From assembly GCA_030167865.1 (NCBI GenBank), contig JALAGF010003172.1, forward strand, positions 1-64,000: a stretch of 64,000 bases of DNA. Reading direction: 5' to 3'. This stretch comes from Craspedostauros australis. Its lineage: Eukaryota. The notes beneath the pieces were generated by a model, which was given only the letters and a program-made list of their open reading frames with translations, ran no database searches and had not been told where the DNA came from. How positions within the stretch are numbered: the stretch's first letter is position 1; each line of letters starts with the position of its first letter. Below are positions 12,778 to 43,711 of this stretch, piece by piece. The position numbers and the translations under genes were made by a program.

Positions 12778-13782
12778 ATGATGGCGATTGCAACAAATAT
12801 ATTCGCCACGATCGTGCTGCTTCCGTTCGCGGCAGGTTTCGTGCCGTTCAGCGGTGGCGGACGAGTGCAGAACACAGCATGCGGGATGTTCACCGGAATC
12901 GTGGAGGAGATGGGAAGCGTGGTTTCGTTGGAGGAACGTGATGACATGATGCTTTGGGATGGCACCAAGGGGAAGGGCACCGAGCTCACGGTCAAGGGCG
13001 AAGTCGTCATGGATGGCGCATACTTGGGGTACGTGTGATGTGTGGTGTTGGATTACATCACAAGGAACGGGTTATTCTGTTGCCGTACAATGCACCGTTT
13101 GAACTGTTCATCTCTTTGTGTGTCCGTGTGCCAATCTATTTCTGACACCCTGTTTCATCTTTCATCACGCCTTCAATCCATTTCGTTGCATTCCATTCCA
13201 TGCCTTCTCTTACTGTCGGAACCAAACAGATGCAGCATCTGCGTCAACGGCGTTTGCTTGACGGCGACCGAATTGGATTTTGACAACAACGTCTTCCGCG
13301 TCGGTCTGGCACCCGAAACGTTGCGACGCACCTACTTCACGGATCTGCAGGCAGGCGAGCCCCTCAACTTGGAACGTGCCTCGGAAATTGGCGGTCGCAA
13401 TTCGGGACATTTCGTGCAAGGTCACGTCGACGGCGTCGGCACCGTGATTGATCGGTGGCAGGATGAAGATTCCCTGTTTTACAAAGTGCAGGTCGATGCG
13501 AATATTTTGAAGTACATCGTGCCGAAGGGCTTCATCGCCATCGATGGAACGAGCTTGACGGTGGTCGAGGTCAACGCGCAGGAGAAGTGGTTCACATTCA
13601 TGTTGGTCGATTACACGCAGAAGAAGATTATCATTCCGAGCAAGATGGTGGATGGCAAGCTGAACATCGAGGTCGATGTGCTCGGCAAGTATTCCGAGAA
13701 TGCACTGGCGGCCCTTATTCCAAGATTGGAAGCGCTGGAGGCAAAGGTCGAATCGTTGGAGAAGGAGTTGGCGCAGAAATGA
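12778..13782 (+). CDS. Riboflavin synthase (alpha chain), plastid-targeted, 2 exons: 12778-13028, 13230-13782 (~267 aa)
   Basis: Hallmark 'MFTGIVEEMG' follows a signal peptide ending AAG|FVP (ASAFAP-like). Motifs 'GCSICVNGVCLT', 'NLERA..GHFVQGHVDG', 'KGFIAIDGTSLTV', 'NIEVDVLGKY'. Phase-2 GT..AG intron 13029-13229. Confidence 0.95.
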
Positions 13783-13945
13783 ATGATGAGGCAGTGGTGA
13801 TGACCGTCGCGTTTCGCAATGGACAGAAGGAGGACGGTGCCTCTTCGTGTGAAGTATTCAGTTGAACGACATTGGCGTCAATGCCCCGTTCTTGCCACAT
13901 ACACGAACAAAATCGTAGCAACAGGAGAGTACTCTATATTGGCAT

Positions 13946-16900
13946 TTATTCTGCAGATGATCTTGTATGGCCACCGGCAAACGCGTTGAGCTCATCACTA
14001 TCGACAAACGACAAGGACACCTCCGCATTCGGCAGGGCAACGCGCTGACTGGCATTCAAGATGGCATTGCGTTCCTGCAACCAATCCTTCAGTTTGGGTT
14101 GCTCAAATGAGACGTTGTTCTTGATCTGGATGACGAAGGCAAAATCTCCACCAGCACCACCGCCGCCTGCCGCATTCGTCCTGCTCCGGTACATCTTGGA
14201 AGATGGTCGAATCGAATCCGTCTGGTTGAAGAAGGACTCCGTCGCCAACACTGTTTGCAACAAGTGCAACGATCCCCAATGCTTCACTTGTGCTGGAAGG
14301 AGCCTTTCCTCGTTGTGTCGTTGGTTGATTTGCAACACGAGGCAATGGGTGCTGCCACTGCTGCTGCTGTTGCCTTCTTCGATCTCAGCATTGAACGGCA
14401 ACAGCGTGTGGACCAACGCATCAATGGAAACAGTTCCATCATCACCGACTGCGTTTTGTGTCATGCTGGCAGCCCTTGTGATTTCATCGATGATGCTCTG
14501 CGTCGTCGACGGCGTGGAACTACGAGCACAGTTGCCACCGCTCACTGGTGCGACCACCGCCATAGTCTTGCGTTTCGTAGCGACTTGTTTTGCTGCATCC
14601 ATGCTGTTGATGCTTTCCGCAGTGTACATCTCTTTGGGTAGCATGACCAGCAACGGACTGGAATGGCGCATGTGGTTGGCTGCTTTGAAGAAGTGGACCA
14701 CGATAGTGTTGATGGCATCTCTCTGCTGCTTCTGCTGGTACGTTTGCGTTTGCGTGTCCTGCGCGGGCTGATTGGTAGGAAGGACGAGCGATCCATTGGC
14801 AAGATCATGGAACAGGATAGAAGCAAGCCAGATGGTCCATCCATATCCACCCAGGTACCCCACGCCAGTTCCGTAGATCTGTCGACGCGATGCCCAAAGT
14901 TTGATGATCCTGAGTGCTCCGGAGAATGTATCGACCATGTTCGTGTGATTTTCATGAACCTGTGTTGCGATCTGGCGCAGCCTTTCCACGATGATATCGA
15001 CGTCGTGGACTGATGCAAGAGCTGCTGCACTGGCACTGTCCAATGGTTGGCCATCCCCGTCTTCGAAGCAGATTTGGATGTCGACAGCTGGCGTTGCAGG
15101 CATAAGCCTCACTGTCAGCACAGACAAGACGCGGCCTGAAGCGTTGGATGTTCTCAGTCGGCATCTGCTCTGTCCATGCAATGACTTGATACGGACTTGC
15201 AGGGCGTTGAAGAATTCATCCGCGTTGCTTTCCATCAGGTTCACATCGTCACCACGAGCCTTGGACCGCAGGACTACAACCATGTCAACGTCGGAGATGC
15301 CCGGCAAGGTCGAGCGCGTGGCATGAGAGCCGAATGGACGCATCTGCACCTCGACTGCATCTCCAAACTGTTTCGCGGCAACTGTGTGGCAGGCTCGCTC
15401 GATTTCGTGCAACGTTCCGCACGCAGTACCATCGAAGAAGCTCTTGCGGCTGGACCCGCTGTCATTAATGAAGGACTTCGTTGCATTGACCGGGATTTTC
15501 GCTTTGTCTTGTCCCGCGAGCGGAATCGATCCGCAGCAGTAGAAGCTCTTGTCGAGACTGCTGCGTCGGAAGATCCCCACGGAGTGGCAATCCAGACATG
15601 CAGCATCTTCTTGCATATTGGATTGGGCATTGGTGCGCTGCTTCGGTTGGTTCTCAAAATGAAAGCGAATGCGTTGCAGCTGTTGTCTGGCAGCGTCGAC
15701 GGTTGCATACTTGCCCAGCGAGATATGAGGTGTCCATCCATCCTTGAAACGGCTTTCCTGATCGTGGCAGTTGGGGAATGCAACTCGCAGTACGGCGTAC
15801 AGATCTTGCAACCATCTGGTGCGAGGATCCGACATGTTGGGAGTGTACACAAGCGATGATGACTGCGCATGCTCAAAGACACGGAAGGAAGCTGCATCAA
15901 TCGGCAGATGGAACCCGTCCGGTTGCTGTGCGAACGTACTTTGAATCGCCATCTTGACACCGCGCGTGGCCATGTCCATCGCGTTGGCATTGGAGAGTTC
16001 AACGAATCCGTACATGAGGGTGATGTGCGGGATTGGGAGGGAAGATGCGCGATCGTACATATCCAGGCCATAGAACTGCTTCTGATTGAGCTGGATGGCA
16101 AGGATCGAATCGGTGCTTGTTGGAACCGTTGCAGCCCATGCATTGCAGTCGATGGCCGACGATGATGCTTCCATTCGTGAATGTGCCGTTTGCGAAAGAC
16201 CACGCTGCTCGAATCGAACGCACACGCCGTAGTGATCTGATGGTGGCAACGGGTCGGAATGATGTCTGCCCAACAACGACGCCTCCATTGGTTGGATTGG
16301 GAGTCTATTCGGCATCGTGACATCTTTGACGACGAAGATTCTGTCGATTCGTCGTGGAGGATTCTCGGCATGGCCGTACTGCCTCGTCTTGTTGGCTCGG
16401 GCATTGGTCTTCCAGTCGAAGGTGCAATGGTGCTCGCCCTTGCTCTTCGATGACACCCAAGCATCGTCAAAGTACCTGGCCGAGGCATACGGGATGGCAT
16501 CCGCACCGTCATTGAAGTCTCCCATGATGAAGGTGACGGGACGTATCTGCGTTGCCTCTTGCTCCCTCTGAATCAGCTGCAGCTTAGCAACAAAGGCTGC
16601 AAGTTCTCGTCGCCGCGCTTGTGACCTCGTGCTGGTGGTCTGCGTATCATGATCAAACTTGTCAGCAGGCAGATGAACATTAGCGACGTTGTACACGCGT
16701 GTGCCGTGCAGCAATGTCACGATCATGCCTCTGTCACGGTCGCCTTCCACACAAACAAAGCTATCGTCGGCTTCGAATTTGGTCTTGTTCCACAACATCA
16801 CGTTGCCGTACGCTCTGGTGCTTTGCCAACGCGAGTGCACATCAGACAGGGCGTACGTCCTTCGAACCCACGGTTGTCGTTCCAACAGCTTGAGAAATCG

Positions 16901-17821
16901 TGGCGTCACTTCTTGAAGTGCGATAATGTCCGCATTTGAACGCTCCAGATCGTCCATCAACCGCTGCCATCGATCGCATGTGGAGTCGGAATCAGACAAG
17001 AGGCTGTCGTCGCCCTGTGCCAGCTTGTCGTTCGCATCGCGATGGAGATCGAACAGCACGTTCCACGTGACGAGCTTCAAGTCATCGTCATCGCTTTGCA
17101 GTTTGGTAGCATTCGCATGTGCTTGTATGCAGTGCTGCTGCTGGTTGTTCTCAGTCTGTGTGGATGCGGGTGTCACTTTTGGATTGAATGCGTAGGAGCC
17201 TGGCAGATTCTTCCAACAATGCCTCTGTGGAAAATGCGACTTCGTTGAGTTGTTGGATGATCCTGAAGTTTGAATTGTTCCTCCAGATGTTGCCAACTGC
17301 GACGATGGCGCGGTGTGGCCATTCTTCATTGCATTCGCTTTCGCAGCCGCCGTTTGCCTGGCCGCCTTGCGTGCTCGTTGCTTCCTCTTCTCCTCCATCC
17401 TTTCCTTGCGTTCTTCGGCAAGTCGTCGCATGGTCTGCATCGCCATACGGATGTTGTGTACCGTCTGCGGCGCCGGCAGGATGCTATTGCCGTGGCCGGA
17501 GCCAAACAACCGATCCACGCGTGCGGCTCTATCCCACATGACGCTGCGCGAAAGTTCCGCATCGTCAGGCGCCGGCTTCACGGTCTTGCGGAAGTACTGG
17601 ATCCGGTGCTCGGGAATGTCGCCACCTTCATTGATGTTGGTGTAGTCTTCGACGCACTTCTCCATCGGTCCGTTGATCCTGCAGTCGTATCCCATGAGCA
17701 CGTTGGACGGCGACGCTTCTTCGATGCCGGACCATTTCAAGCGATTGATGACTTCGGCGGCCGTTCTCAGCTTTCGTTTTGGCGATGTCTCGCAGTGATG
17801 CTGCTTCTTGTTTTGCAGCAT
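13946..17821 (-). CDS. Multidomain RNA end-processing protein: MJ1316 + EEP phosphoesterase + 2H phosphoesterase + poly(A) polymerase-like nucleotidyltransferase (1291 aa, intronless)
   Basis: MJ1316: 'LRTAAEVINRLKW..MGYDCR..GDIPEHRIQYFR..WDRAARVD'. EEP: 'TWNVLFD', 'ALQEV', 'NVHL', 'MGDFN', 'RIDRIF', 'SDHYGV'. 2H: 'PHITL' and 'PHISL'. Pol-beta NTase: 'PFGS..SDVDMVV', 'VDIQ'. PAP central domain: 'LRIIKLWASRRQIYGTGVGYLGGYGW'. Confidence 0.85.
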   Translation of the reverse strand: MLQNKKQHHCETSPKRKLRTAAEVINRLKWSGIEEASPSNVLMGYDCRINGPMEKCVEDYTNINEGGDIPEHRIQYFRKTVKPAPDDAELSRSVMWDRAARVDRLFGSGHGNSILPAPQTVHNIRMAMQTMRRLAEERKERMEEKRKQRARKAARQTAAAKANAMKNGHTAPSSQLATSGGTIQTSGSSNNSTKSHFPQRHCWKNLPGSYAFNPKVTPASTQTENNQQQHCIQAHANATKLQSDDDDLKLVTWNVLFDLHRDANDKLAQGDDSLLSDSDSTCDRWQRLMDDLERSNADIIALQEVTPRFLKLLERQPWVRRTYALSDVHSRWQSTRAYGNVMLWNKTKFEADDSFVCVEGDRDRGMIVTLLHGTRVYNVANVHLPADKFDHDTQTTSTRSQARRRELAAFVAKLQLIQREQEATQIRPVTFIMGDFNDGADAIPYASARYFDDAWVSSKSKGEHHCTFDWKTNARANKTRQYGHAENPPRRIDRIFVVKDVTMPNRLPIQPMEASLLGRHHSDPLPPSDHYGVCVRFEQRGLSQTAHSRMEASSSAIDCNAWAATVPTSTDSILAIQLNQKQFYGLDMYDRASSLPIPHITLMYGFVELSNANAMDMATRGVKMAIQSTFAQQPDGFHLPIDAASFRVFEHAQSSSLVYTPNMSDPRTRWLQDLYAVLRVAFPNCHDQESRFKDGWTPHISLGKYATVDAARQQLQRIRFHFENQPKQRTNAQSNMQEDAACLDCHSVGIFRRSSLDKSFYCCGSIPLAGQDKAKIPVNATKSFINDSGSSRKSFFDGTACGTLHEIERACHTVAAKQFGDAVEVQMRPFGSHATRSTLPGISDVDMVVVLRSKARGDDVNLMESNADEFFNALQVRIKSLHGQSRCRLRTSNASGRVLSVLTVRLMPATPAVDIQICFEDGDGQPLDSASAAALASVHDVDIIVERLRQIATQVHENHTNMVDTFSGALRIIKLWASRRQIYGTGVGYLGGYGWTIWLASILFHDLANGSLVLPTNQPAQDTQTQTYQQKQQRDAINTIVVHFFKAANHMRHSSPLLVMLPKEMYTAESINSMDAAKQVATKRKTMAVVAPVSGGNCARSSTPSTTQSIIDEITRAASMTQNAVGDDGTVSIDALVHTLLPFNAEIEEGNSSSSGSTHCLVLQINQRHNEERLLPAQVKHWGSLHLLQTVLATESFFNQTDSIRPSSKMYRSRTNAAGGGGAGGDFAFVIQIKNNVSFEQPKLKDWLQERNAILNASQRVALPNAEVSLSFVDSDELNAFAGGHTRSSAE

Positions 17822-18776
17822 GTTGTGTGCGCTTCAAGTGCGTGTATCTCTGTCTTTGTCTCTCTCTATCACTCTTTCTTGAGTTTATGAGATCTCCTGC
17901 ATCTCGTCAACATGCGTTGCACTGCGCCGCCCCGAAGTGTGTGCGTTGTGTTGTTTGCATTCTCACAGAGTGTGGTCTGGTTCGCGATCTGCCCTTTCGA
18001 TTTGTCCACGTTTGGAAGCCATAGTGCACGTCTGATACCACGACTGAAAGAATCACGAATAATATTCGTGACTTGAGTCATTGCACAAAACCATGATTGA
18101 TGTGTCCACGCTTCACACAGTTGGCACAACGTCGACATGAGACAACACGGCGCAGCACCCCTCTCAAGGTCTGGAGCTGCGCCTTGTGGGTCTTCCGAAG
18201 TGCACACACACAACAATGATCAGCATCATTGTCATCGTTGTCGGTGTGGCAGTTGTTGGACATGCAAGTCTCGAATTGTTCTTCTTCCTTTTGCGGATTG
18301 ATTGGCTCAACGGTCGGCAACCTGGCTGCGCGCACCGTGACATGTCACGCCAAAAATCATTCACGCAAATCATGTGACCGAGTCTTGTGAATAGCTCGTA
18401 CAGTAGCAGTACCATGATGGCATCACATCATGTCACAAGGTCTCATCGTGGGACATGATCAAAGAAAAAGAGAGTGTTGGTGGGAATCCATGTGTGCGTT
18501 TGTATGGGAGGCAGGAGGTGGAGAGACAGAGAGTCCTCGACAAAATGGAAAAATGGATTGGATGGCCAAAGCATGGAAGGACACGGAGAATGCGGAAGAG
18601 GCCTCGCTATGGCGTCCACGCTCCGAGTGCTTCGATGGTGGAATTGTCCACACCGCCTCACAATGAAGGCTGGCAAAGGATCGGGCAAACGAGTGTTGAT
18701 GGACATTGTGCGATACCACTCTTCGATTGAAATACTCCACTCCCTTGCACATACACTCTCAAACAAACAACTCACG

Positions 18777-19850
18777 ATGAATAACTCATCATCACAGCAG
18801 CGGCACCAGCTGGAGCATCGGCATCGGCATCTGCGACACAAGCCTTTGCGAACGTCTCGCAGGCGCTATTCATCCAACTTGGCGGCTGCGTTGCTTGGAT
18901 GCGTATGTATCGCATTGGCGCAAAGCACCCCATCCCACGCGTTCAAGGAATGCCTCAAGGAAGACCGTCGGCGCAAGTGGCAAGAGCCATGCGAGAAGGT
19001 GGACATTCATGAATCTTTCCATCACCTCGCCGACCCGATGAAACAGCTCAGGGAGAGCAGCCAACTCACTTGCAGCAACGCAGCCGCCGCAGAGAGCTCC
19101 AACAGCAACAGCGACGACAATGGCACTTGTGATAGCCAGAACAATCGCAACACGATTGGCAACAGCGACATTGTCAGCTCCGAATACAACGAACGCAAGG
19201 ACGCATGCTCGTACGTGACGGCAGCTATTTTCGCTGAGAATCCCATGTACGACGCCGTCCTTCTGCACCAAGGCATGTGCGATGGCGGAATCGCCGAAGG
19301 CACGTTCGGTCCTCACGATGCGTTGAGGCTGCTGCCCAACAATCAAGAGCTCATGTCGCTCATGATCTACGGACGTGATCTGGCAAAGGCCATCGCCACT
19401 GCTATCCACCACGCGTATCATCACAACGCGAGGGGATCCTTTCCCACAACGGCGGGGATGCGCTACAAATATCAGCTCGTGGGTGAGGACATCCATGTGT
19501 CGGACGTCCAATTTCTGTCAGCATCGTGCGGTTGGCAGGATATTCAATTCGACCAGGTCTACACCGTGCTGACGAATCGGCATCTTCTCGATCATCACGA
19601 AGGCTACAGAGCTCTGCAAGCCGCGGTCATCAAGCAGGTGACTGGTAACAGCGAGGCGCACACCTTCTGGTCGCACACCCAGTCATTGTGCCGACTCGAA
19701 ACGAAGGAAGCTAAAGCGGCACGACGCCTTCGGGAAGCAGAGGCAGAAGCCTTGGCGAGTTACGGAGAATCCAAGATGGTGCATCACGTTGGATGCGTGA
19801 ACTCTCAGCATACGGCAAGGAGTAGACCTGTATTCTCCGCCGGAATGTGA
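18777..19850 (+). CDS. Protein with signal/anchor segment and only the 5'-nucleotidase C-terminal domain (~357 aa; start uncertain, ORF open from 18474)
   Basis: 'DAVLLHQGMCDGGIAEGTFGPHDALRLLPNNQELMSLMIYGRDL..GSFPTTAGMRY..VYTVLTNRHLLDHHEGY' resembles 5_nucleotid_C. Hydrophobic segment 'LAAALLGCVCIALA'. No metallophosphoesterase motifs seen. Confidence 0.65.
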   Translation: MNNSSSQQRHQLEHRHRHLRHKPLRTSRRRYSSNLAAALLGCVCIALAQSTPSHAFKECLKEDRRRKWQEPCEKVDIHESFHHLADPMKQLRESSQLTCSNAAAAESSNSNSDDNGTCDSQNNRNTIGNSDIVSSEYNERKDACSYVTAAIFAENPMYDAVLLHQGMCDGGIAEGTFGPHDALRLLPNNQELMSLMIYGRDLAKAIATAIHHAYHHNARGSFPTTAGMRYKYQLVGEDIHVSDVQFLSASCGWQDIQFDQVYTVLTNRHLLDHHEGYRALQAAVIKQVTGNSEAHTFWSHTQSLCRLETKEAKAARRLREAEAEALASYGESKMVHHVGCVNSQHTARSRPVFSAGM

Positions 19851-38565: not shown

Positions 38566-41500
38566 ATGGCATCCAGATCCAACCGCAGGAGCAGCCACAG
38601 CACTCCATCGCTGGAGATGAAGGAAGCGCTGATTCAGAATTCCAGCTACCACTCCAAAGCACGCGCGCCAAAGACGTGGGGCGAGTTCTCCCAGCAGCAG
38701 CAACAACAGCAGACACTGGGACATCCGGATCATTCACGAAACCGCCATCATGGTGGGAATCTTGGTGGATTGATGGATGGCGGTGCCAATGTCGGACCAG
38801 CTAAAACCCATAGCGGCAACCGATCGGGCACAGGGACATTCCCGGCCATAGACACAAATGCGGACATTCGACCTTCAGGGACAGCGTCCAGATTATCTGG
38901 GACATCCTGCTCAAGAACGGGAATGGTGTACCACTGTGTTGGCCCAGATTCACGGTCATCGCAACAACCAACACCAGCAACACCACATACACAACAGCAA
39001 CACCAGCAACGGGCTTTTGTGCACTATTCCCCTTCACTATCACGAACAACAGCAGCAACAGTAACAGCAACAGGAGCAGTAATACCAACAGCGACAGCAG
39101 TAACAACAAGAATAAACTCAAGAACAGGCTCCCACCCAAGGCCATCGCAAACATCACAAACATCATCACAAACATCACAAACATCATCACAAACAACAAC
39201 AACACCGCTGACAACTGAAAGCCAAAGGCTGGTGCAGGAGTGGGACACACAGGCGAACGCAACGATGGAACCACACGAACAGATGGACCTGCTGTCGCAG
39301 CAGCAACAAGAACGCTTCGCCAGAGGACCTGGCCAGCCCAGGCCACCGAACACCCGAACCTCCCTCAAGTTCCAAAGAGCGCCGCGGCGATCAGGAGGTT
39401 CCTTCTGGAACACGATGTCACGGCGCAACTTCTCACCTGATGACATCCGCAAGTCCTCCAATGGCTACGATGAATACAGCTTCGACGAGGAAAGCCCCGA
39501 GTCCTTCGTCCTCGATGATGACTCCGTCGAAAGCAGATCGACCATGGCTGGCCTGGCGGAACGCAACCGTCCCCAACGGACTTTCTTCTCCTTTGGCAAG
39601 CAATCACGATCGCGACCCAACAAGGGGCACTTCAAAGGCAAGGCCGGTTCTGGGGCCAGGACGGCCAGCACTTCGGGGGGATCGCTCAGGAGGAAACCCC
39701 ATGGATCGTCAGCATCGTCTGGCCAACCCAAGGGCAAGCCCGGCCAGGCACCAAACCATCCCGGTGGTGGCGACGACGGCGATGATGATGATGATGACCT
39801 CCCTAATCCGGTGTCCGCTGCGTCGAATGCGTCGTCAAGGTTGTACGAGGACGTCCTCATCTGCGGCACCTTCTACAAGCTGCGCCAGTTCCGCAACTTC
39901 ATCGGCATCTCCATCGTCTACCTGTGGCTGCTCCTGCCTCTCGTCATCGGGATCTACCTGCGCTCGCAGCAGTTCGACGAGTTCGACACCCACTTCAACA
40001 CAGTGGCGATGCAGTTCATCCACACGCTGGAGCATCGCGTCGGCATGATCAGCAGCAACCTCGAATACCTCAGCATCACGGCCAACGTCGAAACCGATGC
40101 GAAGGATTGGCCCTTCGTCACCATCGTCGACTTCGAACGGTACGCGACGACATACGAGGGCATGCTGCTCTTGACGTCGTTTCATCCCACGGTCGTGCAG
40201 GGCAACAAGAGAGAGTGGGAGCGGTACGCGGTCGACCAGACGAGCATGGATGATCCGCTCCAGTATCCCGTCATCTGGCATCTGGATCCGAATCAGACCA
40301 CCTTCCAGGTGCTGCCGTACTTCGACACCGAGAACAGGACGTACTTCCCAGCATGGCAGTACACGACGGTCAAGGACACCTCCTTGATCAACGGAGATCT
40401 GCTTAACGTCTACTACCCCGACGAGATCAGTCATCTCCTGGAACGATCGCAGTCTGATGGTCATGGCAACGAAAGTCGAACGACGCTTACCGTCACGCCA
40501 GTTCATGCCAACCCTTCGGTGCAGGAGGCTGCGCTCTACGAGAATCTGATGCGGCTCAGCGACGAGCACGCCATTGATGAGTACAGAAACGAGCCTGTGT
40601 CATGGGTCTTCGTCCCTGTGTACCCGCAGGCACCAAATGGCGAGGAGGACACGGTGAGCGTGGCAGCCGAGAATGAGCAGCAACCAAGCACCTACACGAG
40701 CAGCGCCGAATCATCCATGTTGGGTGTCATCAGCTCCATCCTTCACTGGCCGACGTTCCTGCAGTTCAACTCGACCATGGACAACCACAACATCGTCTGC
40801 GTGGTTGAGAACACCTGTGACGACACAGTCTTCTCCATGGAACTGAGGGGCAACAACGAGGTGCGATTCATGGGCTACGAAGATGCCCATGACCGAGGGT
40901 ACGATTCCATGAGGCGTACCCTGTCGCTGCAAAGCGATTCTCGCGATCTTGGTAGCATCAAGACCTCCTTCTGCCAACACGCCGTCCATGTGTACCCATC
41001 CGATGCCTTCCAGGGGGACTACATCACCTTGCTGCCGTACACGATGGGCCTGGGCATCATCGCCCTCTTCATCATCGTCTTCACCAGCCTCTACTATTAC
41101 GACACCACCATCTATCGACAGATCCGGACCATCCAGCAATCATCCCACGAGAACCAGATGATCGTCACGCAGATGTTCCCGCAGCAATTCCGTCCCATGC
41201 TGACAGGCAAGACAAGCCACCCGCTCACGAAGCACATACCCAAGGACATGATCACACCGGGAACGACGCCATCTGGCAAATCATCCACCATCACGCAGCA
41301 ACCCATCGCGGATTTGTTTCCAAATTGCACCGTCTGTTTCATCGACGTTGCCGGTTTTGATGTTTGGAGCGCGAATCGGGAACCGGACCAGGTAAGTCCT
41401 TGCCGTATGTGCTGTCACGTTGAATGTGCTGCCACGTTGAATGTGCTGCTACGTTGATTCGGTTGCGAATACTATCTCCTCACCACTTGTGTCTCAACCT

Positions 41501-43711
41501 CTCTTTTACTGTGCATATGTACGTACGCATAATCATCAACAGATATTCACGTTGCTTGAGTTCCTTTTCCGCAACATGGACAACTTGGCACGACGCCGGC
41601 AGGTCTTCAAGGTGGAGACCATCTCAGATTGCTACGTCGCCGTGACAGGATTGCCAGATCCACAGAACGACCACGCGCCTCGCATGGCTCGATTCGCCAG
41701 GGACTGCATGACGCACTGCCATCAACATATTCGTATCCTGCAGAGCACGCTGGGCCGCGACACCATGGATCTGCGGTTGCGCGTCGGCATGCACAGCGGC
41801 CCGGTCACGGCCGGTGTGCTGGTGGGGGAAAAGGCAAGATTCCAACTGTTCGGTGACACCATCAACACGGCCAGCCGCATGCAATCGACGGGACGCAAGA
41901 ACCGCATCCAGGTGTCGGAGCACACGGCCGACTTGCTCAAGGAGAGCGGCAAGGCATCGTGGTTGACGCTGCGCGAAGATGCTGTGCACGCGAAGGGCAA
42001 GGGTATGCTCGTCACGTATTGGCTCACGGGCAACACGGGACACAACAGGAACGTGTTGGAAAGCCAGCCGCACTTGCAACGACCGTCAGCTGGTGGGTCA
42101 GCCGAGATGTCTGACGTATTCGGTACCACAGATCTGTCGATGCATGCCAACCAGAGCAACGAATGGAAGGTCAGCGACGTTGAGCTTGCCAATGGTGGAG
42201 CGAACTCGGGTGGTATCAAGGCCACTGCAGCAGCCGGTGGAGAAGGTGGCGGAGTCCTTCGACGGGGGTCAGGTATCGGCCGTCGTCAAAACTCGCAGCA
42301 CAGCAACGCCTCCCACGGCGATCGCAGCAATCGCGTTGTGGAATGGCTGTCTGAAATTCTGTCCGAGCAGTTGCGACACATCATCGCAGAACGGGAAGGC
42401 AAGAAACGCAACGACGCCACGAAGAAGGCAATATCGTTCGACTTGGCGCCGATGAAGGATGGTGATGACAGCAGTGTTGGCGGTGGCGGTGGCGGCAGTG
42501 CCATAGGAGATGGGAAGACCTCACCCAAGACCAAAAAGGTCGACCTGGATGAAATCACGTACATCTTCCCAATGCCGCTGCGCTGCAATGCGACGACAGG
42601 TATGAAGGTCAACCAGTCCGTACAGCTGCCGTCTCTCGTCAACGTACAACTGCGCAAGTACGTCTCCACGATCTGCCGCAAGTACCGCAAGGTCCCATTC
42701 CATGATCTGGATCACTGCGCGCACGTCACGATGTCTGCCGTGAAGCTTCTGAAGCGCATCGGCAACTACACCAACAGCAACGGCGGCATCCTCTCCGATC
42801 CTGATCGTATCCACGACATGACGTACGGCATCGCATCCAACGCGTTGGTGCGCTTTGCCGTCGTCTTCGCCGCGTTGATTCATGACGTCGATCACCCAGG
42901 CGTGCCCAACGGCCAGCTGTCCAACGAATCATCACCGCTGGTCGCCGAGCATTCGGACCAATGCACGTTGGAGCAGAATTCCTTCCAGATTGCCTGGACC
43001 CTGCTCATGACGCGGGACTACAAGGAACTCGTGGACTGCATCTGCGACAACATGCAGGAGCTGTCCCAGTTCCGTCTGTACGTTGTGAACCTGGTGATCT
43101 CCACGGAGATCTTCAACCCTCGCCTGAAACTGACGCGTTTGGAGAAGTGGGAGCAGGCCTTTGCCTTAGATGGGTACTTGGAAGAGGAGCACTCGCGCAG
43201 TAATGCACCCAGACCCCGCGAGGCCGAAGATCAGACGGACATGGAGCAGAAGGCCACCATGGTGCTGATCTGCTTGCTGCAGGCCGCCGACATCAGCCCC
43301 ACGATGCAGAGCTGGTCGATCTACAAGAAATGGAACGAACGGTTGTTTCAGGAAATGTACAACGCCCACCAGGCCGGACGATCGCCGCGCGATCCCAGCA
43401 TCGGCTGGTTCCAGAGTGAGCTGTGGTTCTTCGACAACTTCGTGATTCCCATCGCGCAGAAGCTGCGGACCTGCGGCGTGTTTGGTTCGTCGTCGTCGGA
43501 TTGCCTGACGTACGCACGCGAGAACAAACGCGAGTGGGAGAATCGCGGCGAGGAGCTCGTGCAAGAGATGGTGCAGCGGGCCCGCGAGAAGCATGCGCAG
43601 ACGATGAGATCGACTGCACCAGAAGCGTCGGCGGTGTCCGCAGTGCATGACAAGGAGAATATCGCTCTGGCGGGACCGACAGCAGCAGGCGGAGACGGAG
43701 GACAGAAATGA
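38566..43711 (+). CDS. Receptor-type guanylate/adenylate cyclase-3',5'-cyclic nucleotide phosphodiesterase fusion, 2 exons: 38566-41391, 41543-43711 (~1664 aa; start uncertain)
   Basis: Two TM helices flank a CHASE-like ectodomain. Class III cyclase motifs 'FIDVAGF', 'KVETISDCYV', 'RVGMHSGPV', 'RFQLFGDTINTASRM'. PDEase_I motifs 'PFHDLDH', 'IHDVDHPG', 'AADIS'. Phase-0 intron 41392-41542. Confidence 0.92.
41416..41457. repeat. 17-bp tandem duplication (CACGTTGAATGTGCTGC x ~2.5) inside the cyclase-PDE intron
   Basis: Read directly. Confidence 0.85.

Follow-up and report, generated by a model that had tools for sequence, protein, structure and literature searches.

Many ribonucleases leave RNA ends that carry a 2',3'-cyclic phosphate, as do ribotoxins and quality-control nucleases, and the ways in which such ends are cleared or reused are only partly known. 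The fungal and plant-type tRNA ligases (Trl1/RNL) are multi-module enzymes for such ends, with ligase, kinase and CPD modules. Fusions of another domain, MJ1316, were reportedly first described in a 2016 survey by Burroughs and Aravind. In the accessible part of PMC6514570, MJ1316 is described as recognising RNA 2',3'-cyclic ends and as being fused to RNA-repair domains. Enzymes that act on these ends include ThpR of E. coli, a LigT-type 2H enzyme that converts RNA>p to a 2'-phosphate end according to the accessible part of PMC4201822, and ANGEL2, an EEP enzyme with 2',3'-cyclic phosphatase activity according to the title of PDB entry 6rw0. Here we describe a gene of the diatom Craspedostauros australis, located on the minus strand of a 64,000-nucleotide window (positions 1 to 64,000 of contig JALAGF010003172.1), whose product, P0001, joins MJ1316, EEP, 2H and poly(A) polymerase (PAP) modules in that order from N- to C-terminus. 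Like Trl1/RNL, it would be a multi-module enzyme for cyclic-phosphate ends, but it has no ligase or kinase domain and carries EEP and PAP modules instead. Judging from its sequence, P0001 is probably an enzyme that heals and extends RNA 3' ends within a single polypeptide.

Gene structure and domain organization

The open reading frame (ORF) encoding P0001 is a single ATG-to-stop frame of 1291 amino acids plus the stop codon, and is by far the longest in the region. A Pfam scan matched Exo_endo_phos (PF03372) at residues 251–530 (E = 2.8e-16), 2_5_RNA_ligase2 (PF13563) at residues 590–722 (E = 1e-9), NTP_transf_2 at residues 824–858 (E = 0.013) and PAP_central at residues 965–1002 (E = 1.1e-12), as well as MJ1316 (PF04457) at residues 19–79 (E = 2e-5), where the score of 25.6 bits compares with a curated cut-off of 26.3 bits. 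An NCBIfam scan added nothing beyond this except a very weak CBASS-cyclase match (E = 0.15), and neither scan matched a ligase or kinase family. As read from the sequence, there is no hydrophobic leader, and MJ1316 begins right at the N-terminus.

Conservation was assessed in three alignments: A1, in which diatoms, Capsaspora, a fungus and bacteria are represented by 27 full-length homologues, A2, with 53 sequences, and A3, with 55. A1 also provided the family profile, with which every PDB sequence was searched. AlphaFold, run on family alignments, gave two models, one of residues 1–745, with a predicted local distance difference test score (pLDDT) of 84.0 and a predicted template-modelling score (pTM) of 0.74, and one of residues 740–1291 (pLDDT 90.3, pTM 0.92). 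The features of the gene, all on the minus strand, are as follows.

13946..17821 (−), whole ORF (P0001), collinear with 26 homologues along its full length in A1
17492..17773 (−), MJ1316 RNA-end recognition domain, approximately residues 17–110 (Pfam, conserved residues, model pLDDT mostly >90)
17324..17470 (−), long basic helix, residues 118–166, 49 residues (DSSP of the model)
17087..17323 (−), low-confidence linker, residues 167–245 (pLDDT <50 at 169–195 and about 55–85 at 196–245)
16202..17086 (−), EEP domain, TDP2-like, residues 246–540 (Pfam, PDB profile, Foldseek, VIA, conservation)
15518..16120 (−), 2H phosphoesterase domain with a LigT/AKAP18/Usb1-like fold, residues 568–768 (Pfam, conservation, VIA)
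14942..15490 (−), Pol-beta nucleotidyltransferase (PAP catalytic) domain, approximately residues 778–960 (Pfam, alignments, profile)
14363..14941 (−), PAP central domain, approximately residues 961–1153 (Pfam; PAP gamma, PAP alpha, Pap1 and Pla1 matched by both profile and fold)
13976..14362 (−), C-terminal beta-alpha-beta-beta-alpha-beta (RRM-like) domain, approximately residues 1154–1282 (model mf43a9ebd0aca, Foldseek)

No conserved block is missing from the P0001 frame, which is aligned with the homologues from the first block to the last. Because the protein aligns end to end in this way, the intronless gene model proposed in the first-pass annotation fits. The same annotation had also listed the four modules in order, with intact active sites, and this was borne out by Pfam, the alignments, the profile, the models and the fold searches. 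The positions it gave for the HxT, HxS, FGS, DVD, VDIQ and KLWASRRQIY..GYLGG motifs and for the EEP residues were all correct, and every family that it had named for comparison was matched by Pfam, MJ1316 falling just under the cut-off. Its “coiled linker” is present, but the model shows it as one long helix (residues 118–166).

The EEP domain

The full EEP catalytic set is present in P0001: N254, E304, H383, D435/N437 (in GDFN), D493 and S528-D529-H530 are invariant among 53 sequences. In the profile search, the EEP part matched TDP2 best (1.9e-28), with Nocturnin next (6.7e-12). The matches to ANGEL2, PDE12 and CNOT6L (1e-9 to 1e-7) were limited to the first 50–60 residues of the domain, that to ANGEL2 (1.3e-9) covering profile positions 180–243 only. 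A Foldseek search with the model of residues 1–745 returned TDP2 entries at ranks 1–45 (best E = 3.3e-15). VIA-align superimposed the EEP part on TDP2 (4fpv) with a Z score of 27.0 and a root-mean-square deviation of 2.9 Å over 244 aligned residues, compared to Z scores of 23–25.6 for other EEP families (23.2 for ANGEL2). The EEP of P0001 is nearest to TDP2, and the earlier description of an EEP domain with all its residues in place holds, with the refinement that the domain is TDP2-like rather than generic. TDP2 is the best solved relative by both profile and fold, but the two share only 16–22% identity, and the P0001 domain sits among RNA 3'-end enzymes. Metazoan TDP2 has an N-terminal UBA-like domain, whereas Pfam found no UBA-type domain in P0001, where the N-terminus is MJ1316.

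This relationship leads to another reading, in which the EEP domain removes a 5'-phosphotyrosyl-type adduct, such as a viral VPg on RNA, while the 2H and PAP modules handle the 3' end. In addition to the closeness of TDP2 in profile and fold, TDP2 entry 4puq, which holds a 5'-phosphorylated RNA/DNA product, speaks for such an activity. However, the residues that are shared make up the generic EEP catalytic set, and other EEP families are within 1.4–4 Z units of TDP2. The missing UBA-type domain and the common occurrence of the architecture in bacteria also count against it, and all of the partner domains point to 3'-end chemistry. We consider 5'-adduct removal very unlikely.

The 2H domain

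The two 2H motifs of P0001 are HxT at H599/T601 (around position 16027) and HxS at H699/S701 (around 15727), and both histidines are invariant among 53 sequences. VIA-align of residues 568–745 gave Z scores of 9.4 for AKAP18, 9.3 for Usb1, 9.3 for YjcG and 8.4 for the P. horikoshii 2'-5' RNA ligase, and in the profile search the 2H part matched the B. subtilis 2H protein YjcG at 5.6e-6. The domain shares two HxT/S motifs and the 2H fold with LigT/ThpR, YjcG, AKAP18 and Usb1, and differs from the LigT/ThpR-type enzymes in being placed inside a multidomain protein. The extended motifs HxTxxF and HxTxxR, given for ThpR in the accessible part of PMC4201822, compare with HITLMY and HISLGK in P0001.

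Usb1, one of the best fold matches of the 2H domain, is relevant to a reading in which either a Usb1-like 2H domain or a CCR4/Nocturnin/PDE12-like EEP domain removes 3' nucleotides and the PAP re-extends the RNA, thereby setting the tail length of particular small RNAs; trimming may create an end with a cyclic phosphate, to be held by MJ1316. Consistent with trimming, CNOT6L, PDE12 and Nocturnin reach Z scores of 23–24, close to the 27 of TDP2, and MJ1316 is also found fused to an RNase_T exonuclease (P0108). Nevertheless, the profile favours TDP2 over Nocturnin by 16 orders of magnitude, and its matches to CCR4-type chains extend over the first 50–60 residues only. Furthermore, the family is abundant in bacteria, which lack U6-type substrates and in which it is linked to ligase and kinase genes. 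Trimming and re-tailing thus appears quite unlikely.

The poly(A) polymerase module

The nucleotidyltransferase motifs of P0001 are FGS (residues 830–832), DVD (D844/D846, around positions 15292–15286) and a third aspartate, D914, in VDIQ. Among 55 sequences, G831, D844 and D846 are invariant, and S832 and D914 are found in at least 90%. The central motif, KLWASRRQIY..GYLGG, occupies residues 974–992 (K974-LWA...Y983...GYLGG). The last 130 residues of the 740–1291 model form the RRM-like domain, whose counterpart is the RNA-binding domain of canonical PAPs. In the profile search this module matched PAP gamma at 7.6e-68 and PAP alpha, yeast Pap1 and S. pombe Pla1 at 1.5e-63 to 9.7e-61, over the catalytic, central and C-terminal parts and reaching PAP residue ~499, compared to just ~1e-13 for non-canonical enzymes of the Cid1/URT1 type. 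All of ranks 1–16 in the Foldseek search with the 740–1291 model were canonical PAP chains, with 550–590 aligned columns.

The polymerase of P0001 is a complete canonical PAP, with catalytic, central and RRM-like C-terminal domains. It shares these three domains, as well as the GS, DxD, third aspartate and KxWA...Y elements, with Pap1, Pla1 and PAPs alpha and gamma, but is only ~14–16% identical to them in the fold alignments and is fused behind three end-processing modules. This domain context argues for recruitment by a route other than the cleavage/polyadenylation complex.

Some of the structural matches are to enzymes of nucleotide signalling, for which the model is OAS, opposed by AKAP7 and PDE12. 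By analogy, the nucleotidyltransferase of P0001 would make 2'-5'-linked or other oligonucleotides that the 2H and EEP domains degrade. AKAP18, the rotavirus VP3 2-5A (2'-5'-oligoadenylate) phosphodiesterase, the poxvirus cyclic GMP-AMP phosphodiesterase and PDE12 are all among the fold matches, and the weak CBASS-cyclase match in NCBIfam is in the same direction. However, the nucleotidyltransferase matches canonical PAPs at ~1e-68 and the CD-NTase CdnC merely at 7.6e-7. The PAP RNA-binding domain is retained, and both MJ1316 and the ligase/kinase linkage argue for polymeric RNA ends as the substrate, making a signalling role extremely improbable. The signalling, trimming and 5'-adduct readings are all a poorer fit to the profile scores and the gene linkage than the healing and extending of RNA 3' ends.

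MJ1316 and the basic helix

The MJ1316 domain of P0001 gives a weak Pfam match compared to its orthologues (33–41 bits) and to bacterial members of the family (up to 66 bits). We accepted the match because its core residues are common to the members that score 33–66 bits: W30, G44, P70, H72, R73, W96 and D103 are fully or almost fully conserved among 27 and among 53 sequences. An MJ1316 profile (A4, nine sequences) found no solved structure, the only two matches being noise (E = 0.5–1.8).

The helix that follows is a feature of the diatom-type proteins. It is separated from the EEP domain by a stretch that the model indicates is disordered. The MJ1316-plus-helix module is also found elsewhere, in P0011, P0108 and short fragments. 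The closest copies of the P0001 unit (40–57% identity) occur in fusions with three further RNA-end enzymes, namely a Tpt1 2'-phosphotransferase (P0144), the RNase_T exonuclease P0108 and a tRNA ligase (P0011). The named relatives of P0011 are diatom proteins, from Amphora, Cylindrotheca, Attheya, Seminavis, Nitzschia, Ditylum, Skeletonema and Fragilaria; this assignment by named relatives applies to P0011 and not to P0108 or P0144. PF04457 was matched in five of the 94 listed relatives of P0011, so that five tRNA-ligase relatives share with P0001 a module of the MJ1316-helix type, in their case at the N-terminus.

Distribution and phylogeny

Searched exhaustively, residues 1–1190 of P0001 matched 730 cluster representatives at E ≤1e-3, of which 285 passed ≤1e-10 and 71 passed ≤1e-30. 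The nearest proteins are full length and 30–38% identical, and six of ten matches carry all four Pfam families; they include a Cylindrotheca closterium protein (P0002; “Polynucleotide adenylyltransferase” in UniRef) and a C. fusiformis transcriptome protein. All four families were present in 22 of the 34 homologues scanned, in an order identical to that in P0001. Clusters with named sources came from Odontella aurita (MMETSP transcripts, 1256 residues; P0022), Pseudictyota dubia (1453 residues), a “Corethron pennatum” transcript and Capsaspora owczarzaki (P0067), and single transcripts that encode all four modules are known from other diatoms.

The architecture is also carried by many Myxococcota and Actinomycetota. 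With the bacterial member P0061 as the query, 104 proteins were found, most of them with the four families, from Archangium (e.g., A. violaceum P0170), Stigmatella, Pyxidicoccus, Streptomyces (e.g., S. europaeiscabiei P0208), Kitasatospora, Catellatospora, Microtetraspora, Polyangiaceae and Planctomycetota. The names given by the sources are “poly(A) polymerase”, “polynucleotide adenylyltransferase”, “RNA repair domain-containing protein” and “DUF504 domain-containing protein”. In the protein atlas, clusters of 53 to 387 members have the four-module domain set (Actinomycetota, Ascomycota, Rotifera). Three IMG/VR contigs, one of them 624 kb long and one labelled GVMAG, have ORFs of 888, 915 and 909 amino acids; the 909-residue product matched all four families, and the other two matched MJ1316, EEP and PAP_central and were collinear across the 2H region. 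In the homologue from the fungus Cryphonectria parasitica (P0262), which the P0061 query also detected, the modules are permuted, with 2H first, followed by EEP and PAP, and MJ1316 at the C-terminus.

P0001 shares the modules, their order, all catalytic residues and full-length collinearity with the rest of the MJ1316-EEP-2H-PAP family. In A1 it is 21–27% identical to bacterial members and 30–39% identical to other diatom-type members (up to 41% over the columns kept for the tree). It is ~250–300 residues longer than the bacterial proteins, from which the diatom-type members differ by the added long basic helix after MJ1316 and by insertions within both the EEP domain and the PAP central domain.

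A quick maximum-likelihood tree was made from 45 rows, leaving out the permuted P0262. The 18 diatom-type rows formed one clade (Shimodaira–Hasegawa-like approximate likelihood ratio test support of 100) on a long stem, with P0001 in a well-supported subgroup alongside the Cylindrotheca proteins, in agreement with the diatom host. The viral rows formed a separate clade, and the placement of Capsaspora, among bacterial and unnamed rows, was weakly supported. Since the tree is unrooted and many of its rows are unnamed, it does not assign a donor or a direction of transfer.

The first-pass annotation had pointed to similar fusions predicted in RNA-repair surveys, but to no diatom description or biochemical characterisation. 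The fusion is no novelty of diatoms, as the architecture is widespread and named in databases, other diatoms included; our literature search, which did not cover the 2016 RNA-repair survey, found no biochemical or diatom-specific study of the architecture. P0001 belongs, as a divergent member, to a widespread RNA-repair family that is named in databases and biochemically uncharacterised, and is not a new kind of enzyme.

Two further observations concern the homologues. The “Corethron pennatum” transcript cluster (P0012/P0157) is the closest sister of C. closterium, nearer than C. fusiformis, an odd placement for a centric diatom; the transcriptome sample may have been mislabelled or mixed. In many genomes of Myxococcus, Cystobacter and Archangium (L036–L050) the match consisted of just ~80 residues of MJ1316, which suggests, from the sequences, stand-alone or differently fused genes beside the four-domain gene.

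Gene neighbourhoods

Bacterial neighbourhoods were examined at five myxobacterial genome loci and, with long flanking sequence, at 16 metagenome loci. Seven of the 16 metagenome loci have, within 5 kb of the homologue, both an RNA_ligase (PF09414) gene and a gene for an AAA_33 P-loop kinase-like protein. At two of these (L054 and L061) the ligase and AAA_33 domains are fused in a 594-residue protein that abuts the start codon of the homologue. Separate ligase and AAA_33 genes lie upstream on the same strand at three more (L073, L075 and L081), the AAA_33 protein of L075 also having an HD domain, while L070 has two ligase genes upstream and an AAA_33 gene downstream, and L091 has both genes downstream on the other strand. 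L095 has a gene for an RlaP nucleotidyltransferase and no ligase or kinase; the remaining eight metagenome loci have none of these. The five myxobacterial loci have no ligase gene and no conserved neighbours, and one of them (L010) has an RlaP gene ~3.5 kb away, the same distance as in L095. With seven of the 21 bacterial loci showing it, the ligase/kinase linkage is real but not universal.

A comparable association occurs in cis in a diatom. The Pseudictyota dubia transcript cluster (P0025/P0278) has a fifth module, a C-terminal AAA_33 domain (E = 3.3e-8), of the same Pfam family as the kinase-like genes that adjoin the bacterial members. The matches of this domain, both in the PDB and in a bacterial neighbour kinase, are confined to P-loop stretches.

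The ligase and kinase partners raise the possibility that the enzyme heals ends for ligation, with the PAP filling in one or a few lost nucleotides and a separate ATP-dependent RNA ligase and 5'-kinase sealing the break, so that no long tails are made. The seven linked loci, including the HD-AAA_33 protein of L075, agree with this reading, as do the AAA_33 module of P. dubia and the RlaP genes of L010 and L095. On the other hand, 14 of the 21 bacterial loci have no linked ligase, and there is none in the C. australis window. The polymerase is a complete canonical PAP of the processive type with an RNA-binding domain, rather than a minimal fill-in enzyme. A tRNA_lig_CPD phosphodiesterase domain is present in the diatom-related tRNA ligases, and tRNA ligases of this type carry their own kinase, which also counts against dedicated healing for ligation. 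We regard it as possible, but rather unlikely, as the sole function. Under the healing and extending of ends that we favour, resealing may nevertheless be an outcome beside tailing, in view of the ligase and kinase partners in bacteria and of the one diatom orthologue with an additional kinase-like domain. The gene context in bacteria suggests that ends are healed for ligation with a likelihood no lower than that of tailing.

Two further neighbourhoods of bacterial homologues are recorded as side observations: an ADP-ribosylglycohydrolase gene directly upstream of the homologue in L078 (L078:5042-5953), and genes for a MoxR-vWA-beta-propeller ternary system downstream of the ligase/kinase cassette in L070 (L070:10635-13175).

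In C. australis itself, P0001 has no operon partners in the window, unlike some bacterial members. The nearest gene, convergent with the ORF, is a lumazine-binding/riboflavin-synthase-like gene at 13000–13782 (+), with ~160 bases between the two stop codons. Contigs from one public run are 100% identical to the window and cover 13000–14921, which includes the last ~1 kb of the ORF. The run is not on record as RNA and was counted as RNA-derived because a contig skips 13028–13228, a 201-base intron of the lumazine-binding gene with GT..AG ends. This intron means that the start of ORF 13090..13782 is intronic and that the true first exon is upstream of 13028. A contig that spans two convergent genes does not demonstrate a single transcript, and the uncovered part of the ORF is neutral in this respect. 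A divergent gene at 18504–19847 (+), ~680 bases upstream of the repair gene, encodes a 5'-nucleotidase C-terminal domain (E = 2.6e-9). Farther away, at 38566–43708 (+), a 963-residue ORF without a Pfam match overlaps by 14 bases the start of a 756-residue ORF with guanylate-cyclase and 3'5'-cyclic-nucleotide phosphodiesterase domains, and the two may be one large gene.

Discussion

From the domains and their context we infer the substrate, for which the first-pass annotation had suggested tRNA or U6, as well as the order of steps, the phosphate removed by the EEP domain, which nucleotide is added and what becomes of the product, as follows. MJ1316, aided by the basic helix, would hold an RNA that has been cut by a ribonuclease or ribotoxin and ends in a 2',3'-cyclic phosphate. 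The LigT-like 2H domain would hydrolyse the cyclic phosphate to a phosphomonoester, probably a 2'-phosphate, by analogy with E. coli ThpR. The TDP2-like EEP domain, which would be metal-dependent, could then remove this phosphate, or another 3'-blocking group, to leave a 2',3'-diol, and the canonical-type PAP module, with its own RNA-binding domain, would add untemplated nucleotides to the freed 3'-OH. Finally, the healed or tailed end might be resealed by a separately encoded RNA ligase or passed to 3'-5' decay. The general theme of RNA-end repair, already put forward in the first-pass annotation, gains from the location of bacterial members beside RNA ligase and kinase genes, and from the statement on MJ1316 in the accessible part of PMC6514570.

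Several points weigh against this proposal. The MJ1316 match of P0001 is 0.7 bit under the Pfam curated cut-off, and the fold-search matches of the 745-residue model were taken up by EEP and 2H, leaving the identity of MJ1316 to be based on sequence. The fold score of Usb1 (Z 9.3) equals those of the LigT-type structures (8.4–9.3), and 2H enzymes like Usb1 do not open cyclic phosphates but produce them by trimming. The substrates of TDP2 are 5'-phosphotyrosyl adducts and not 2'- or 3'-phosphates, while ANGEL2, the known cyclic phosphatase among EEP enzymes, is matched far more weakly than TDP2. The genes near the ORF within the window are ordinary eukaryotic genes, with no RNA-repair gene among them, and two thirds of the bacterial loci (14 of 21) have no ligase nearby. 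The RNA-derived contigs reach only the 3' ~1 kb of the ORF, and we found no report in the literature of a measured activity for any member of the family.

The occurrence of the MJ1316-helix unit on several enzymes suggests a broader, tentative and somewhat doubtful idea, in which the unit is a shared address label for broken RNA ends. Cyclic-phosphate fragments might then be triaged between resealing and healing followed by A-tailing for decay, and the enzymes involved may be the tRNA ligase, Tpt1, the ERI/RNase_T-type exonuclease and the EEP-2H-PAP enzyme. If this were true, the fragments could be products of ribosome-associated mRNA cleavage or of RNA cutting induced by a virus, for example, and the basic helix may serve to anchor the enzymes to ribosomes or structured RNA.

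Taken alone, the window yields a sound annotation rather than the discovery of a new kind of enzyme. The family to which P0001 belongs extends from diatoms, other protists and fungi to giant-virus-like contigs and many soil bacteria, with the diatom-type proteins as a distinct, conserved clade. It raises the questions of what role a TDP2-like EEP domain has at an RNA end, which phosphate isomer is produced by the 2H domain, and whether healing leads to tailing or to ligation, in a family whose single chain combines a predicted reader of RNA ends, two enzymes that clean such ends and a complete poly(A) polymerase.

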